DNA of 64,000 nt from Bdellovibrionales bacterium (GTDB lineage Bacteria; Bdellovibrionota; Bdellovibrionia; Bdellovibrionales; DASUEL01), in assembly GCA_050250255.1 (NCBI GenBank), contig JBFWOZ010000007.1, positions 9,200 to 73,199 of the forward strand, given 5' to 3'. Each line of letters starts with the position of its first letter. Position 1 is the first letter of the stretch. The position numbers and the translations under genes were made by a program. The notes under the pieces were generated by a model, which saw only the letters and a list, made by a program, of their open reading frames with translations, was not told the origin of the DNA and did no database searches. Below, piece by piece: positions 28,854 to 33,356 of the stretch.

Positions 28854-29897
28854 GTGAGTTTCATAGATAAGATTTCGGAATACTTTTCCAATGATATTGC
28901 CATCGATTTAGGCACGGCCAACACCCTTGTGTACGCGAAAGGTCGCGGGATCATTTTGAATGAACCTTCTGTCGTCGCAGTTCAAAAAAATTATCGCGGA
29001 ATTCAAAATCGCGTATTAGCAGTGGGTAAAGAAGCAAAAGATATGCTCGGAAAAACCCCTGGCAGTATCGTGGCCATCCGTCCAATCAAAGATGGTGTGA
29101 TTGCCGATTTCGAAGTGACACAATCCATGCTCAAATATTTTATTTCTAAATCGACAGGACATCGCAAGAGTTTTATTCGTCCTCGAATTATCATCTGTGT
29201 TCCTTACGGGATTACTCAGGTGGAAAAACGCGCGGTGAAAGAATCGGCTTACTCTGCAGGTGCTCGCGAAGTTTATTTGATTGAAGAACCAATGGCGGCA
29301 GCGATTGGTGCGGGTCTTCCGATCACCGAACCAAGTGGAAACATGGTTGTTGATATCGGTGGTGGTACAACGGGTGTTGCCGTGATTTCTCTTGGCGGTA
29401 TCGTGTACTGTAAGTCGATCAAAGTTGCTGGTGATAAATTTGACGAAGCAATCGTGAACTATGTTCGACGTCAGTTCAATCTTCTCATCGGTGAGCGAAC
29501 AGCAGAAAATATCAAAATTGAAACTGGAAATGCTTATCCTTTCGAGGAAGAGCGCGTGATGGAAGTCAAAGGACGAGATCTCGTTGCGGGAGCTCCGAAG
29601 ACGATCGAAATCACAAGCACTCAAGTTCACGATGCGTTGATGGATCCTCTCAACGAAGTTGTAGATGCAATCAAAACCGCTCTTGAAAAAACTCCGCCCG
29701 AATTAGCATCTGACATTGTAGATAATGGAATCGTGCTTACCGGTGGTGGTGCATTGATGTCGAATCTCGATGTTCTTATTCGCGAGAGAACAGGTCTTCC
29801 TGTTTCAATCGCCGAAGATCCTTTGACTTGCGTTGTGCTTGGATCAGGAAAAGTGTTGGATGAACTCAACCTATTAAGGCAACTCGCCACGGATTAA
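28854..29897 (+). CDS. mreB: rod shape-determining protein MreB
   Basis: [32 protein letters not shown] and [10 protein letters not shown] are actin-fold phosphate and adenosine motifs. 347 aa, GTG start. Confidence 0.9.
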
Positions 29898-29900
29898 AAA

Positions 29901-30365
29901 ATGATCAACGAAACACAGATGAAATCTGTGGCACTCTTCTTTTTCTATGCATTTATGGAAGAGTCTGTGGCAACGGCGGCGATTAGCAAATCTTTACGAA
30001 AAATCGAAAGATCCCTGAGAAAAGGCGACGGCTTTTCCTCTTTTTCTTCCGCTTCCGTTTACTGGACAGAAAAAGTGTGGAGTCGTTATAACAAGAAAAA
30101 ACAATTTGTAAACCTTGGACTCGAGCGCATGTTTTCTCTGCCCAAAGATGTCGAACTAGAACCATGGAAACAACTACAAAAAGATGTGCTCCCTGAAGAG
30201 TATTTGGCGGCTATCTGGACTGGTCTGCTTCAATATCCTCCGCAAGATATCGCAGAAGGTTTGGGTGTTAGTGTCGGCACGGTTCAACATCGTTCAGGTA
30301 TAGCTCTTAAAAAATTAGGTCTCTTACTCCAATCAGGAAAGCTTCATGCCAAAAAGAGAACTTAG
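29901..30365 (+). CDS. truncated ECF-like sigma factor (clear region 4, degenerate region 2)
   Basis: 154 aa. LPEEYLAAIWTGLLQYPPQDIAEGLGVSVGTVQHRSGIALKKLG is a sigma70 region 4.2 HTH. The N-terminal half lacks a recognisable region 2. It starts 3 nt after the mreB stop. Confidence 0.55.
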   Translation: MINETQMKSVALFFFYAFMEESVATAAISKSLRKIERSLRKGDGFSSFSSASVYWTEKVWSRYNKKKQFVNLGLERMFSLPKDVELEPWKQLQKDVLPEEYLAAIWTGLLQYPPQDIAEGLGVSVGTVQHRSGIALKKLGLLLQSGKLHAKKRT

Positions 30366-31428
30366 TTGCTTTCTATGCCGCGAACTCCTCTATGAATTCG
30401 TGACGGGGACAATCGATAGTCGCCGCCGTCAAGCGGTGCAAGAGCATTTAGAAACCTGTCCTGAATGCAAAAAAGAACAAGACACTTTCAATCAGGGTCT
30501 CACTTATTTGAAAGAACTGGGTCAGGCTAAAATTCATCCGAATTATCTTAAAGAAATTTCTGAACCAGAACCATTTCCAAAACGAATTCTCAAAAAGATC
30601 GGGTGGCATAAGTGGCCAGATCCGGTGAGATGGACTGTAGAAAGTGTTGTTGTCGGTTCTGTGCTAGCAGTATTGATCGGAGTGGTATCTCAAAAATTTC
30701 TTTTCAACTCCGAGAACAATGAGGCGGCTCTTTACACAGATACTGAAAATCCAGTAGAAGTCGCACAGCAGGTTCCAGAAACACCTTCCGATCAATTACA
30801 GGGTAATGAAAACGGTGAAAATCCCTATACAGGAAGTGATGAAGAATACTCTCCTGAGGTGGAGACGACTCCTGCTGCAAAAGTGGAAACTTCACTGCCC
30901 CCAGCGTCGACACCATCAGCTCCCGTTGCTAAGAGTGAAGCAGTGGCTAAAGCTCCGACGGTGACAGAGCCAAAATCCGACGGCTTTCTCTACCGTGGCA
31001 GCATGTATATTCAAGAGGTGGGTGCGGCAACTCCTTCTGTCGTGAAAAAAATTATTTCTCTTGGCGGAAAAAGAGCAGGGGAAGTGGAGCTGGGTTGGAA
31101 ACAACCTGGAGGAAGCTACTTCCACTTTTCTATGCCGGAAAAAGAGTTGAATGCTCTCTTGGAACATTTAAAACAGTATGGAAAATTAAACCTCGTAAAA
31201 GAAAAAAATCGTCGGGTCATGCCGTCAGGAACAATTCGTATCATTTTAAATTTGAATGGTCCTCGAGGAGACGCTACAGTTCCGATGACAAATCCTGAAC
31301 CTTCTAATCCTTCAGAGCCTTCTGAAAGTGCGGTTCCTGTGCCAACGCCGGCGTCGGATGTGCCCGTACCTCCAGCGGTTCCAGTGGAAGAGGCAACTCC
31401 TGAAGCAAATGTAGAGGAGGCCCAGTGA
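30346..31428 (+). CDS. anti-sigma factor, zf-HC2 type, single-pass membrane protein with Pro-rich periplasmic part
   Basis: The N-terminus CFLCRELLYEFVTG...HLETCPECKKE is the H-x3-C-x2-C putative zinc finger. TM is VVVGSVLAVLIGVV. It overlaps the sigma-like gene by 20 nt. Confidence 0.6.
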   Translation: MPKRELSCFLCRELLYEFVTGTIDSRRRQAVQEHLETCPECKKEQDTFNQGLTYLKELGQAKIHPNYLKEISEPEPFPKRILKKIGWHKWPDPVRWTVESVVVGSVLAVLIGVVSQKFLFNSENNEAALYTDTENPVEVAQQVPETPSDQLQGNENGENPYTGSDEEYSPEVETTPAAKVETSLPPASTPSAPVAKSEAVAKAPTVTEPKSDGFLYRGSMYIQEVGAATPSVVKKIISLGGKRAGEVELGWKQPGGSYFHFSMPEKELNALLEHLKQYGKLNLVKEKNRRVMPSGTIRIILNLNGPRGDATVPMTNPEPSNPSEPSESAVPVPTPASDVPVPPAVPVEEATPEANVEEAQ

Positions 31429-33356
31429 GATCCGCAAGAAAATCAAAACGTTCTCTCCGAAGCGCATTGATGTTTTCTTATTTGCTCTTTTCAATCGCAC
31501 CGCTCGCATTTATTACCGCTTACTCGCTCGCAATCTATCAGGGAGCTATTAACGATGAATTGAAAAAGCGTCTGGATGGCAATGCTCGTGAGATCAGTGT
31601 GATTATTACGGAATGGGAACAGCACTTACTTTCCTATGGAAGGATTCACGCGTCAGAACCAAGTTTAATCTACGATCTCTCTACTAGTTCGACATCACGA
31701 TCAAAAACTTTGCTAGAAGGTTGGCTGCGCACTTATATTGCGAATCGAATTTCAGTGTTTGATGACGAAGGGGCCCTTGTTATTTCTAGTACCAGAGTCG
31801 GTCCAGGAAAAGTACAGACAGTGGCCAGCTCTTCTGATCAAGAAGTCTTGTTAAACACGAACATTCTGAGCACACTCAAAAATAAGGACCAAATGAGTGT
31901 GCGTGACCCACGTCCTAGCGAAAATCTAGAATTAGTTGTTTATACGAAGATCATGAACAAAAAGGGTGGAGTTGCTGGTTATCTTGAAGAGCTCATCGTG
32001 ATCGATCAAAATTTTCTTTCCAATTTAAAAAATCGACTGAAGCTTGAGGTGATTTTGCTTAATGAACAGGGACAAGTCTCCGTTTCTAGCCAAAAAGACT
32101 TTTCACTCTACTCCCAATCGTTTTTCCAAGAGCGTATGGATCAGGAGAAAATTGGTTTTTTTGATCACACGATTCGTGATGAGCCTTATGGATTTATCAT
32201 TCGTCCTTTGCAAAGTTCTGGCGGAAAAATTCTTATCGCACTTGGTGCCTCTAAAAAAGACTCTCAGCAAGTCTTGAGGCGTATTGCGGTAGCCATGTTT
32301 TCTGTCTCGGGCGTTCTTATTTTACTTCTGTTCCCTACGCTTTTTTGGATTTCCCGCATGATCTTAAAACCATTAGATCAACTTGTTTCGGCAGCGCAAA
32401 AAATTGAAAGCGGCGAGGCGGTTCAAAAAATCCCAATTGAAAGTACGAGCGAAATATCGGTTTTAACTGATGCCTTCAACAATATGTCGCATAAGGTGAG
32501 CCAAGCTCGTAAAGAGCTCACGAATAAAATTGCAGAGTTAGAATTAACCAATAAAGAACTTCAAGAAACGCAAGCGCAGCTTGTTCATTCCAGCAAGATG
32601 GTGAGCCTTGGTCAGTTGGTAGCGGGTATTGCCCACGAACTTAACAATCCGATTGGTTTTATTTATTCGAATATGGCTCACTTGAAAGAGTATTCAGATA
32701 AACTCGTAAGCCTCATCGAAACGGCAGAAAAACACCCAGAAAATCTTCTTTCGGAAAAAAAGAAAGCCGAGTTTGATTACATTATCGAAGATTTACCACG
32801 TCTTATAAAAAGCTGTGAAGATGGGGCGCGCCGAACCCGCGACATCGTTATTGGATTACGTAATTTTTCTCGTCTGGATGAAGCACAAATTAAAGAAATG
32901 GATATCACGGAGAGTATCAAAAACACTTTGGATCTACTTACCGGTGAATTGAAAAATCGAATTGATGTAAAAACAGATTTCCAAAAACTCCCTCTCGTAA
33001 AATGTTACGTCAGTCAAATTAATCAAGTTTTTATGAACATCCTTACTAATGCCGCTCAGGCCGTTGAAGGCAAAGGAACGATTTGGATTAAAACATCACA
33101 AGAGGCTGACCAAATTCAAGTGAGTGTTCGTGATAGCGGTCAGGGAATCAGTGAAAAAAATCTCGAGAAGATATTTGACCCGTTTTTTACGACAAAACCT
33201 GTTGGTCAGGGAACCGGGCTTGGTCTAAGCATTTCTTTCGGCATTGTCAAAAAGCACGGCGGAGATATTACGGTTGAATCTGCTCCTGGAAAAGGAACAG
33301 AATTTGTAATCTGTCTCCCCATCAATCCTCATCTCGAGGAAATCGCGGCTGTTTAA
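31425..33356 (+). CDS. sensor histidine kinase (two TM helices, periplasmic sensor, HAMP, HisKA, HATPase_c)
   Basis: H-box is GIAHELNNPIGFI, N-box is NILTNAAQA, G-boxes are DSGQGI and GTGLGLSIS. GTGA overlap with the anti-sigma stop. There is no response regulator in the window. Confidence 0.8.
   Translation: MRSARKSKRSLRSALMFSYLLFSIAPLAFITAYSLAIYQGAINDELKKRLDGNAREISVIITEWEQHLLSYGRIHASEPSLIYDLSTSSTSRSKTLLEGWLRTYIANRISVFDDEGALVISSTRVGPGKVQTVASSSDQEVLLNTNILSTLKNKDQMSVRDPRPSENLELVVYTKIMNKKGGVAGYLEELIVIDQNFLSNLKNRLKLEVILLNEQGQVSVSSQKDFSLYSQSFFQERMDQEKIGFFDHTIRDEPYGFIIRPLQSSGGKILIALGASKKDSQQVLRRIAVAMFSVSGVLILLLFPTLFWISRMILKPLDQLVSAAQKIESGEAVQKIPIESTSEISVLTDAFNNMSHKVSQARKELTNKIAELELTNKELQETQAQLVHSSKMVSLGQLVAGIAHELNNPIGFIYSNMAHLKEYSDKLVSLIETAEKHPENLLSEKKKAEFDYIIEDLPRLIKSCEDGARRTRDIVIGLRNFSRLDEAQIKEMDITESIKNTLDLLTGELKNRIDVKTDFQKLPLVKCYVSQINQVFMNILTNAAQAVEGKGTIWIKTSQEADQIQVSVRDSGQGISEKNLEKIFDPFFTTKPVGQGTGLGLSISFGIVKKHGGDITVESAPGKGTEFVICLPINPHLEEIAAV

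Follow-up and report, generated by a model that had tools for sequence, protein, structure and literature searches.

The 64-kb window analysed here (the whole stretch of 64,000 nucleotides) comes from a Bdellovibrionales MAG. It contains four tightly packed, co-oriented genes encoding MreB, a 154-aa sigma-like protein, a zf-HC2 anti-sigma factor and a HAMP histidine kinase; for the last three, the names SigL, AntiS and HK were coined in the course of the analysis. The features of the locus are the following:

28780..28809, + strand: candidate sigma70-type promoter 5′ of mreB, from a consensus scan (-35 TTGACT, 18-nt spacer, -10 TAAGAT)
28854..29897, + strand: mreB, orthologue of B. bacteriovorus mreB1 (Bd0211); Pfam MreB_Mbl, 504.6 bits
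29901..30365, + strand: SigL, 154 aa, divergent ECF-like sigma protein (Bd0213 family), with predicted sigma2-like helices 4-64, conserved linker 65-86 and sigma4 87-144
30346..31428, + strand: AntiS, 360 aa
30346..30624, + strand: AntiS cytoplasmic anti-sigma domain, residues 1-93; zf-HC2, 8.2e-8, 32.6 bits (cut-off 22.2)
30625..30699, + strand: AntiS single transmembrane helix, residues 94-118; Kyte-Doolittle window 2.11
30700..30981, + strand: AntiS low-complexity periplasmic linker, residues 119-212; 60% P/E/S/T/A
30982..31260, + strand: AntiS conserved periplasmic domain of about 93 aa, residues 213-305; 14 invariant columns in 18 orthologues
31261..31425, + strand: AntiS second low-complexity tail, residues 306-360; 69% P/E/S/T/A
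31425..33356, + strand: HK, 643 aa, sensor histidine kinase, Bd0216 orthologue; transmembrane segments at about 17-37 and 288-310 (hydropathy), HAMP 308-358, HisKA/H-box 395-436, HATPase_c 531-633 (Pfam, NCBIfam)
31536..32285, + strand: HK periplasmic sensor, residues 38-287, a 250-aa loop between the two transmembrane segments
33353..33775, - strand: radC, convergent, 3′ boundary of the module; Pfam RadC, 1.9e-39

The gene identities (Pfam, NCBIfam), the coordinates and the junctions agree exactly with the initial annotation. As read from the sequence, the TAA stop of mreB is followed by AAA and then by the ATG of sigL, a gap of 3 nt. The ATG of AntiS (30346) lies inside sigL, whose TAG stop occupies 30363-30365, giving a 20-nt overlap, and AntiS and the kinase gene share a GTGA (31425-31428). 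mreB starts with GTG, a GAGG Shine-Dalgarno sequence being located 7 nt upstream; the kinase gene has GAGGAG 5 nt upstream of its start. The stops of the kinase gene and of radC overlap by 4 nt. radC is also found near the module in other loci (L008, L012, L019, L031, L032) and in B. bacteriovorus HD100 (Bd0218). The GT4, HAD, DAO, CNNM and LpoB genes were identified via the gene tables of their orthologues.

The window MreB matches NCBIfam TIGR00904 with 532.7 bits (cut-off 365.75) and shares about 91% identity with the copy located at about 205 kb in B. bacteriovorus; across the related loci, full-length copies are 85-99% identical. Bdellovibrio possesses two mreB genes, both essential (PMC6985089), and the window carries the MreB1 paralogue locus of such a lineage. 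It had been put forward that regulatory genes stand here instead of mreC and mreD. The absence itself is clear: when 63 of the 66 called window ORFs of at least 70 aa were scanned with Pfam, no MreC, MreD or Response_reg was detected, and neither mreC, mreD nor a response regulator gene occurs in the flanks of nine loci with gene tables (6-10 kb, shorter where contigs end). However, the word "instead" is misleading, since the locus is that of the MreB1 paralogue and since annotated mreC does not follow the second HD100 copy, Bd1737, either.

The SigL-family protein of this putative mreB1 operon is an unstudied sigma-factor-like protein of Bdellovibrio-type predators. Its sole Pfam match is Sigma70_r4_2, at 20.4 bits (under the cut-off of 25.7), and its region 2 is unmatched. 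Across the family, Sigma70_r2 matches 0 of 129 members, which places the family outside the current ECF classification, and in hhalign comparisons with E. coli RpoE and B. subtilis SigW only region 4 aligns. Thus, the initial view of a region-4 HTH with an unrecognisable region 2 holds for sequence profiles, and no normal region 2 emerged; it does not hold for the fold, because the AlphaFold2 model (pLDDT 85, pTM 0.81) includes a sigma2 domain. The predicted structure is a full sigma2-linker-sigma4 ECF fold, with Foldseek TM-scores of 0.64-0.68 to full-length ECF sigmas. The best match is EcfG-type RpoE (5uxx_A, TM 0.68 over 152 columns), others being SigW-RsiW (TM 0.64) and CnrH-CnrY (TM 0.65), and the matched sigmas are in the compact, anti-sigma-bound form. 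Since the profiles and hhalign recover region 4 only, it is the predicted fold, and nothing in the profiles, that argues for a sigma2 function. The idea of a truncated sigma is ruled out by a full-length family of about 150 aa (359 clusters at 50% identity, all of about this length) and by the completeness of the model. An acidic [DE][DE] pair (residues 20-21), present in 59-60 of 60 relatives, occupies the position of the DAED motif of ECF sigmas, which contacts the beta′ subunit (PMC8999054). The sigma4 recognition helix is conserved as G-T-[IV]-[RQ]-[YH]-R-x-G-R-A-L-R-K-L-G. Residues P81, D85-L-x-P-W89 and Q93-K94 of the sigma2-sigma4 linker are invariant, an uncommon trait among ECF sigmas that is suggestive of a special surface for interaction.

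It may be imagined that SigL is not a working sigma. It could be, as initially proposed, a decoy or anti-anti-sigma, in other words a sigma mimic that titrates AntiS and is comparable to the PhyR sigma-like domain, or it could be a plain HTH regulator binding DNA without recruiting RNA polymerase. Such a role would agree with a sigma2 that escapes every sequence profile in the 129 relatives, with the one relative that matches PhyR_sigma-like, with the invariant linker and with the HTH/CsgD-type names that some relatives bear in databases. PhyR sigma-like domains are also among the fold matches, but true sigmas fit better (TM 0.64-0.68 versus 0.48-0.56). Moreover, the protein has only 154 aa and lacks a receiver or other switch domain, and the conserved acidic pair and recognition helix would be unexpected in a pure decoy. 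Finally, neither the window nor the flanks of the nine gene-table loci contain a second, canonical ECF sigma to be liberated. A role of this kind is therefore unlikely, and a divergent ECF-like sigma remains our preferred reading of SigL.

The AntiS gene lies at position +1 of sigL, its start overlapping the SigL stop. An anti-sigma gene at +1 is the canonical ECF/anti-sigma layout (PMC7826278), and AntiS would bind SigL as its cognate anti-sigma. The cytoplasmic domain carries a ZAS motif, C11 ... H34-x3-C38-x2-C41, and gives weak matches to NCBIfam anti-sigma models. In the orthologue alignment, the Cys/His zinc ligands are restricted to the window's clade and missing in most orthologues, whereas the domain is otherwise conserved; judging from this alignment, the zf-HC2 ligands are not a feature of the whole family. 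The transmembrane segment is conserved as well, and the Pro/Glu/Ser/Thr/Ala-rich linker varies in length and sequence. The periplasmic domain is probably ferredoxin-like (beta-alpha-beta-beta-alpha-beta): its single-sequence AF2 model has a pLDDT of 64 and its structural matches are generic ferredoxin folds only. Weak similarity to DUF4349 is observed in 4 of the 18 orthologues.

The same four-gene order is found in all 32 related loci extending far enough; in HD100 it corresponds to Bd0211 (mreB1), Bd0213, Bd0214 and Bd0216. mreB lies directly 5′ of the sigma-like gene in each of the 31 loci that include upstream DNA, and the anti-sigma and then the kinase gene follow in every locus long enough. 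The arrangement is thus far beyond chance, and the linkage, for which the initial annotation had proposed a search in relatives, is kept in all those sampled. Overlaps among the downstream genes of the module are common across the loci.

On the 5′ side, an alignment of 18 orthologous loci shows the motif TTGACT-N17/18-TA(g/a)A(c/g)T before mreB in nearly all of them (TTGACT-17-TAGACT in B. bacteriovorus); it may well function as a promoter. Terminator-like hits in the window are no more numerous than in shuffles and none falls at a junction; the 55-nt B. bacteriovorus gap contains no T-run terminator. A promoter/terminator pair splitting mreB from the downstream genes, named initially as a possible refutation, did not appear in the window, where neither a terminator nor a promoter-sized gap was found. 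In HD100 RNA-seq data, the four genes are all growth-phase specific, with RPKM values falling monotonically (Bd0211 1633, Bd0213 868, Bd0214 180, Bd0216 53), and Bd0217, which comes next, is specific to the attack phase and has its own mapped promoter (PMC3627812 Tables S1/S2). The co-expression is weak evidence, given that growth-phase specificity applies to about two thirds of HD100 genes in this dataset. In a predation proteome (PMC12546842), all four HD100 proteins are detected and, over 11 sample columns, the kinase falls about 16-fold and MreB1 is flat, so that regulation would not be purely operonic. A further point against the operon/ECF reading is that the mreB promoter appears to be of the housekeeping type, not of the autoregulated ECF type, which is atypical for ECF operons. 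On the whole, we infer that mreB1, sigL, antiS and the kinase gene are co-transcribed.

One may also consider that the linkage is frozen synteny without cytoskeletal meaning, the sigma, anti-sigma and kinase regulating something unrelated and sharing a convenient growth-phase promoter. The upstream neighbourhood (HAD, orf166, DAO) is syntenic across the same loci, and therefore vertical inheritance alone keeps much of the gene order. The sequences offer no mechanistic tie between MreB and SigL, AntiS or the kinase, and the diverging levels of the four HD100 proteins over the life cycle, in the proteome cited above, point the same way. However, the mreB-sigL gap is 0-18 nt in most lineages (27 of the 30 loci measured), even at about 30% SigL identity; SigL identity falls to 30-43% while MreB remains at about 90%. 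The four genes remain joined in loci whose downstream flank (radC, CNNM, LpoB) has been reshuffled, extra genes are inserted 5′ of mreB (Bd0210 in B. bacteriovorus), and none of 31 family members was found away from mreB. Mere synteny thus seems improbable to us, and an operon that joins mreB1 to the sigma/anti-sigma pair and the kinase is preferred.

The fourth gene encodes, as described initially, a HAMP kinase with a large periplasmic sensor and no partner response regulator in the window (Pfam scan, hydropathy). Its H-box, AHELNNPIGFI, is conserved in 16 orthologues, with an invariant His. The sensor is probably of the dCache type, from weak dCache_3 matches in 10 of the 16 (best E-value 9.6e-5). 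A direct action of this kinase on AntiS or SigL, whether through phosphorylation or through contact of the periplasmic domains, in a three-component system that dispenses with a response regulator, agrees with the invariable fourth position of the kinase gene, often overlapping the AntiS stop, with the lack of a response regulator in the window and the nine gene-table loci, and with the conserved periplasmic domains exposed by both AntiS and the kinase, but it is very doubtful: the HisKA/HATPase_c core is ordinary, AtoS/ZraS/NtrB-like, and such kinases normally use receiver domains, orphan histidine kinases are common, the predicted SigL fold offers no receiver-like Asp pocket, and no case is known to us in which a histidine kinase phosphorylates an ECF sigma or a class I anti-sigma.

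We consider it fairly probable that the locus is an mreB1 operon in which a sigma/anti-sigma pair of a divergent, ECF-like kind is joined by an orphan kinase, probably of the dCache type. The single conserved housekeeping-type promoter would drive four translationally coupled genes, transcribed with mreB1 in growth. The N-terminal domain of AntiS would keep SigL at the inner membrane; its periplasmic ferredoxin-like domain, carried by a long disordered tether, would perceive a periplasmic or envelope cue and thereby cause SigL release. For the clade to which the window belongs, thiol or zinc chemistry at the ZAS motif is another conceivable cue. Released SigL would bind RNA polymerase and steer it to a regulon, and the kinase would sense either this envelope cue or another one and signal to a response regulator encoded elsewhere. 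Of the proposed envelope-sensing circuit co-expressed with MreB, the linkage and the lack of a separating terminator or promoter-sized gap stand as observed, and co-transcription and a functional tie to MreB1 would follow in this model. One of the two Bdellovibrio mreB genes always precedes the sigma-like/inhibitor/kinase set; hence, an envelope-sensing circuit appears to be expressed with the cytoskeleton.

Several known systems may be compared. Like the ECF/class I (ZAS) pairs B. subtilis SigW-RsiW, E. coli RpoE-RseA and S. coelicolor SigR-RsrA, the module combines a predicted two-domain sigma2-sigma4 protein (TM 0.64 to SigW in the RsiW complex) with an overlapping, directly downstream anti-sigma gene, whose product has an N-terminal anti-sigma domain (with H-x3-C-x2-C in the window), one transmembrane helix and an extracytoplasmic C-terminal part. 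It differs in that the SigL sigma2 is unrecognised by Pfam, NCBIfam and hhalign, in that SigL is shorter (about 150 aa), with only three sigma2 helices and a conserved linker, in the loss of zinc ligands in most AntiS orthologues, in an operon beginning with mreB under a housekeeping-type rather than autoregulated ECF promoter, and in a histidine kinase as fixed fourth gene. The EcfG-NepR-PhyR system (ECF15, Alphaproteobacteria) provides the best structural match, EcfG-type RpoE bound to NepR (5uxx_A, TM 0.68); its pathway also includes a histidine kinase, and PhyR has a sigma-like fold with a degenerate sequence. Here, however, there is neither a PhyR-like receiver fusion nor a small soluble NepR, AntiS spans the membrane and has a domain of the zf-HC2 type, and no response regulator lies nearby.

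V. parahaemolyticus EcfP/VP0055 (ECF43), activated by the Ser/Thr kinase PknT, was named as a case of a sigma2 too divergent for standard models (PMC7826278); SigL resembles it in this respect and in its linked kinase gene. EcfP lacks the acidic DAED motif and an anti-sigma (PMC8999054), whereas SigL keeps the acidic pair and has an anti-sigma, and its linked kinase is a histidine kinase, not Hanks-type. S. coelicolor sigE-cseA-cseB-cseC (ECF39) likewise unites an ECF-type sigma and an envelope-monitoring sensor histidine kinase in one operon, but that operon includes the response regulator CseB, which controls sigE transcription, and has neither an anti-sigma nor a cytoskeletal gene. Finally, the module shares with the classical mreBCD operon (often with pbp2 and rodA) a first gene that encodes a true, strongly conserved MreB. 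Unlike that operon, the locus lacks mreC and mreD, as does the rest of the 64-kb window, and has regulatory genes in their position; its MreB is the MreB1 paralogue of a two-mreB lineage.

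In the window, mreB opens a series of four co-oriented genes, which the ORF listing places at exactly the coordinates proposed in the initial annotation. SigL, AntiS and HK designate the sigma-like protein, the anti-sigma and the histidine kinase encoded after mreB.

28780-28809, forward strand: putative promoter motif, TTGACT-18-TAAGAT (sequence scan)
28854-29897, forward strand: mreB (ORF listing; Pfam and NCBIfam MreB)
29901-30365, forward strand: SigL, 154 aa (ORF listing; sole match Sigma70_r4_2, sub-cut-off)
30346-31428, forward strand: AntiS, 360 aa (ORF listing; zf-HC2)
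31425-33356, forward strand: HK, 643 aa (ORF listing; HAMP, HisKA, HATPase_c)

In the sequence, only AAA separates the TAA stop codon of mreB from the ATG of SigL, the ATG of AntiS lies 20 nt within the SigL gene, and AntiS and HK meet at GTGA, with a GAGGAG ribosome-binding site just 5′. MreB is full length and scores above curated cut-offs (PF06723, 504.6 bits; TIGR00904, 532.7 against 365.75; NF010539, 537.4 against 293). Where an mreBCD operon has mreC and mreD directly 3′ of mreB, the genes of SigL, AntiS and HK are found instead, and a Pfam scan of 63 of the 66 window ORFs of at least 70 aa gave no MreC, no MreD and no receiver domain. Horizontal transfer of the module was envisaged and rejected, its GC content being flat (0.455-0.447 versus about 0.44 for the window) and its conservation vertical.

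The module also occurs at about 205 kb in a complete B. bacteriovorus genome. In B. bacteriovorus HD100, the counterparts of the four genes are Bd0211 (mreB1), Bd0213, Bd0214 and Bd0216, as deduced from gene order, which is the same, from gene sizes and from tblastn matches in L016, the related locus from B. bacteriovorus CP169237.1. In attack and growth phase respectively, RPKM values are 8.3 and 1633 for Bd0211 (201075-202166, MreB), 18 and 868 for Bd0213 (202226-202696, hypothetical, 156 aa), 4.9 and 180 for Bd0214 (202767-203633, hypothetical) and 5.1 and 53.5 for Bd0216 (203630-205597, sensor kinase) (Karunker et al., 2013; PMC3627812, Table S1). All four were scored as growth-phase specific, and the next gene, Bd0217, is attack-phase specific with its own mapped promoter (PMC3627812, Table S2). 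The four products have all been detected in a quantitative predation proteome, where the kinase goes from 7.44 to 6.23 (log10) and MreB1 is flat over 11 sample columns, read here without their headers (PMC12546842). Both mreB genes of B. bacteriovorus are essential and their phenotypes differ; what each paralogue does separately is an acknowledged open question (PMC6985089). In the HD100 gene table, a hypothetical gene and a glycosyltransferase come after the second mreB, Bd1737, and not an annotated mreC. The earlier view that the regulatory genes stand instead of mreCD is accurate for the locus itself; it does not hold as a frame, since the locus is the operon of the MreB1 paralogue. Bd0213, Bd0214 and Bd0216 receive no mention in the literature searched, the 2010 paper on the two MreBs being outside that search. 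At 6901-7945 of L016, where no mreB is called, the tblastn alignment of mreB1 is split between two reading frames (segments 6901-7740 and 7733-7903). As mreB1 is reported to be essential, this split is probably a sequencing frameshift rather than a pseudogene.

Alignment of the 260 nt located 5′ of mreB in 18 loci reveals one conserved element, composed of ATTGACTC, a T-rich spacer and TA(G/A)A(C/G)T 17-18 nt downstream; the B. bacteriovorus copy reads TTGACT-17-TAGACT. The element is a predicted housekeeping promoter, with a near-consensus -35 box and a recognisable -10 box. An autoregulated promoter of the ECF type 5′ of mreB was also considered and was rejected, the conserved motif being of the housekeeping type; classical ECF autoregulation from that site is thus unlikely. 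Rfam gave no RNA element in the mreB leader. Terminator-like hits are not in excess in the window region (9 versus 5.5 ± 2.7 in shuffled sequences), and none is located at any gene junction of the window module. In B. bacteriovorus, the 55-nt spacer between the mreB and SigL genes contains a hairpin, after which comes a run of A rather than of T. At the level of the sequence, co-transcription of the four genes is strongly suggested.

SigL was initially considered to be a truncated sigma. It is not a fragment: its family has a size of about 150 aa and yields a full-length sigma-type model. An exhaustive profile search gathers its relatives, hereafter the Bd0213 family, into 359 clusters at 50% identity. 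The best 150 matches are about 136-179 aa long and nearly all of them align end to end, and every named family member belongs to Bdellovibrio, Pseudobdellovibrionaceae or Bdellovibrionales. The window protein itself has an identical counterpart, annotated as hypothetical, in a Bdellovibrionales MAG. Of the sigma4 models (PF08281/PF04545), Sigma70_r4_2 matches 110 of 129 relatives (best E-value 3.9e-10), the window SigL scoring 20.4 bits, below the 25.7 cut-off, and TIGR02937 matches SigL at residues 109-139 only (E=0.09). Sigma70_r2 (PF04542) has no match in the window SigL and none at E<=0.1 in the 129 family members. Compared with the PDB, the family profile finds region 4 of SigE, SigH and SigR at E-values of about 5e-4 and, beyond region 4, only a weak alignment of 55-144 to 5uxx_A (E=0.013). 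Similarly, hhalign of the profile with E. coli RpoE and B. subtilis SigW recovers region 4 only, region 2 being unsupported. The ECF classification requires a Pfam sigma2 match, and VP0055 and other ECF-like proteins whose sigma2 is divergent are left out of it (PMC7826278). Having no such match, the Bd0213 family stands outside the current classification, and domain-based ECF censuses miss its 359 clusters. This calls for caution in sigma-factor counts in these genomes.

An AlphaFold2 model of SigL was built on 60 relatives (pLDDT 85, pTM 0.81). Three N-terminal helices (4-18, 21-41 and 48-64) are predicted, followed by a 22-residue linker and four C-terminal helices. The model thus displays the ECF arrangement, that is sigma2 and sigma4, no sigma3 and a linker shorter than 50 aa. 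As an unusual feature, the linker contains the invariant P81 ... D85-L-x-P-W89 ... Q93-K94. Helix 2 opens with an acidic pair, [DE][DE], in 59-60 of the 60 relatives. In ECF sigmas, the DAED motif contacts the β′ subunit (PMC8999054), and the acidic pair of SigL would sit at the equivalent place, judging from helix boundaries and not from residue-level superposition. The sigma4 recognition helix, G-T-[IV]-[RQ]-[YH]-R-x-G-R-A-L-R-K-L-G, is conserved among the relatives. The acidic pair and the recognition helix favour a working sigma and would indirectly support binding to the RNA polymerase core and promoter-specific initiation. As an alternative, it was first proposed that the 154-aa protein could act as a decoy; SigL might also be imagined as a non-sigma HTH protein. 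This is less likely, however, because sigma-like functional motifs are conserved in SigL, which possesses no switch domain and has no canonical ECF partner nearby.

AntiS carries a zf-HC2 domain (PF13490; 32.6 bits versus a cut-off of 22.2) and one TM helix (residues 94-118, from hydropathy). The ZAS pattern of the window protein consists of C11, then H34-x3-C38-x2-C41. In the alignment of orthologues, these zinc ligands are present only in the clade of the window (the window, L008, L002 and L003) and are replaced elsewhere, including in B. bacteriovorus. Thus, any redox or zinc sensing by this region (30346-30470) would be lineage-specific. Conservation across all the orthologues extends to the helices around the ligand sites (LLYD[YF] ... 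LD..R..AVE), to the TM helix and to the C-terminal domain. The Pro-rich periplasmic part announced in the initial annotation is indeed there, as two low-complexity segments, 119-212 and 306-360, in which Pro, Glu, Ser, Thr and Ala amount to 60% and 69% of the residues, respectively. Between them lies a conserved globular domain (213-305). Across 18 sequences, 14 columns of this C-terminal domain are invariant; Pfam detects nothing in it beyond a weak DUF4349 similarity in 4 of the 18, and a homologue search with the domain alone gave no match. A weak single-sequence model (pLDDT 64) has a ferredoxin-like β-α-β-β-α-β topology, with generic ferredoxin-fold matches only, too weak to assign a function. 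In the most economical reading of the sequence, AntiS would be the membrane anti-sigma of SigL.

HK scores 27.3 bits for HisKA (cut-off 26.9), 98.4 bits for HATPase_c and 43.6 bits for HAMP. In 16 orthologues, the H-box AHELNNPIGFI is conserved and the phospho-acceptor His is invariant. Hydropathy indicates two TM helices around a 250-aa loop. For this periplasmic loop, weak dCache_3 similarity is seen in 10 of the 16 orthologues (best 9.6e-5) and dCache_1 in 4 of them, the window sequence having no match; in the PDB, the sensor profile matches the Tlp3 dCache at no better than E=0.47. The kinase core is closest to AtoS/ZraS/NtrB-type kinases. Since Response_reg is found neither in the window nor in the flanks of nine loci with gene tables, HK is a conserved orphan. 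It may be envisaged that HK acts directly on the SigL/AntiS pair, but its kinase core is ordinary and we know of no precedent for such direct action of a kinase on a sigma/anti-sigma pair.

The organization of the module was compared in 32 related loci, taken from homologue-encoding contigs, species-representative genomes and metagenomes. mreB is directly 5′ of the SigL gene in 31 of the 31 loci with upstream DNA, and every locus of sufficient length has AntiS directly after SigL, at position +1 as for ECF sigmas, and then HK. Identity to the window MreB is 85-99% among full-length copies; identity to the other window proteins falls to 30-43% for SigL and is about 30% for AntiS and about 45% for HK. 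The gap between the mreB and SigL genes is 0-18 nt in 27 of the 30 loci measured, and overlaps of 1-20 nt are frequent at the SigL/AntiS and AntiS/HK junctions. The genes for radC, a CNNM transporter and the LpoB-like lipoprotein found downstream are shuffled among loci; the four module genes are never parted. In B. bacteriovorus, an additional gene is inserted 5′ of mreB and the four-gene unit is intact. The idea of mere synteny, with no functional tie to MreB, is disfavoured by this near-zero gap, unvarying while the flanks changed.

Several observations concern the surroundings of the module. A 152-aa ORF (28189-28647, reverse strand), divergent from mreB and without Pfam or NCBIfam match, is kept at 38-84% identity in most related loci; a different gene, Bd0210, is at its position in B. 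bacteriovorus. A long palindromic hairpin (27731-27790) lies between a convergent DAO gene (ending at 27733) and a 114-aa ORF (ending at 27788). Its Rfam matches are spurious only (miRNA precursor families, below gathering scores) and it is probably a bidirectional terminator. On the other side, radC (33353-33775, reverse strand) converges on the HK gene, with a 4-nt overlap at the HK stop. It is near the mreB1 module in several lineages (Bd0218 in HD100, and L008, L012, L019, L031 and L032). radC commonly adjoins mreB in other bacteria, and its location here may have been retained from an ancestor in which the two genes were neighbours. Further downstream, the LpoB-like lipoprotein (35926-36528, forward strand), assigned from Pfam LpoB in the gene tables of orthologues, adjoins a 409-aa protein with weak TPR similarity (36550-37779, forward strand). 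The pair is found a few kb 3′ of the module in most loci, namely L002, L003, L008, L009, L012, L017, L019, L023, L024, L031 and L032. As LpoB activates PBP1B in E. coli, the region around the module may have a connection with the cell wall. Genes for a PhaR-like regulator of PHB accumulation (41009-41749, reverse strand) and a large TPR protein (42421-44277, forward strand) likewise follow the module in L002 and L017; synteny is thus kept for more than 12 kb. A three-gene cluster (44906-49703, forward strand) encodes PrkA (AAA and PrkA kinase), DUF444 (YeaH-like) and SpoVR, a conserved starvation- or sporulation-associated trio; in HD100, Bd0228, a 'serine protein kinase', is at the equivalent place. 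A PIN-domain protein of 129 aa (PF01850, 5.8e-19) and the overlapping 73-aa ORF that precedes it (together 60472-61057, forward strand) have the appearance of a toxin-antitoxin pair of the VapBC type. A 444-aa protein with a penicillin-binding-protein transpeptidase domain (971-2305, forward strand) is encoded at the window's left edge, about 27 kb away from mreB; elsewhere among the loci, it is not linked to the module.

On the most economical reading, the mreB1 operon also encodes a divergent sigma of the ECF type together with its membrane anti-sigma and, in parallel, an orphan sensor kinase. In such a model, the four genes would be expressed during growth from the housekeeping promoter, a periplasmic cue would release SigL from AntiS, and HK would signal to a distant regulator. 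In all the loci compared that are long enough, and not just in the MAG, MreB1 is followed by this expressed but uncharacterised regulatory trio (Bd0213, Bd0214 and Bd0216 in HD100). These genes are genetically tractable candidates for coupling predator cell growth to envelope sensing. A more ambitious hypothesis may be imagined, which we regard as doubtful. The Bd0213 family would be an unclassified lineage of ECF-like sigmas, known to date only from bacteria of the Bdellovibrio type, with a sigma2 beyond profile detection and hard-wired with AntiS and the orphan kinase into the mreB1 operon. The trio would then form a cytoskeleton-coupled envelope checkpoint, reading the predator's own wall or the prey periplasm in filamentous growth and setting the transcription of elongation or septation genes. 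If true, the checkpoint would also account for the two essential MreBs with different roles in predators. A regulon or phenotypes tying the module to predator cell growth would raise its interest; an ordinary stress sigma system merely sharing the mreB1 promoter would be of annotation interest only.

Taken singly, MreB, an ECF-like sigma, a class I anti-sigma and a histidine kinase are all familiar kinds of protein. The novelty lies in the invariant operonic union of the last three with mreB1, and in a sizeable family of sigma-like proteins that domain-based detection overlooks; the model predator has and expresses both, and they are unstudied there. With Foldseek, the whole predicted SigL chain aligns to ECF sigmas in the compact form that they adopt when bound by an anti-sigma (TM 0.64-0.68). 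The TM score is 0.68, over 152 columns, with the EcfG-type RpoE bound to NepR, 0.65 with CnrH bound to CnrY and 0.64 with SigW bound to RsiW. Lower scores are obtained with the sigma-like domains of PhyR (TM 0.48-0.56). Moreover, in contrast to a PhyR-type mimic, SigL has no receiver fusion: no Response_reg match is found, and its 154 aa are entirely accounted for by sigma2, linker and sigma4.
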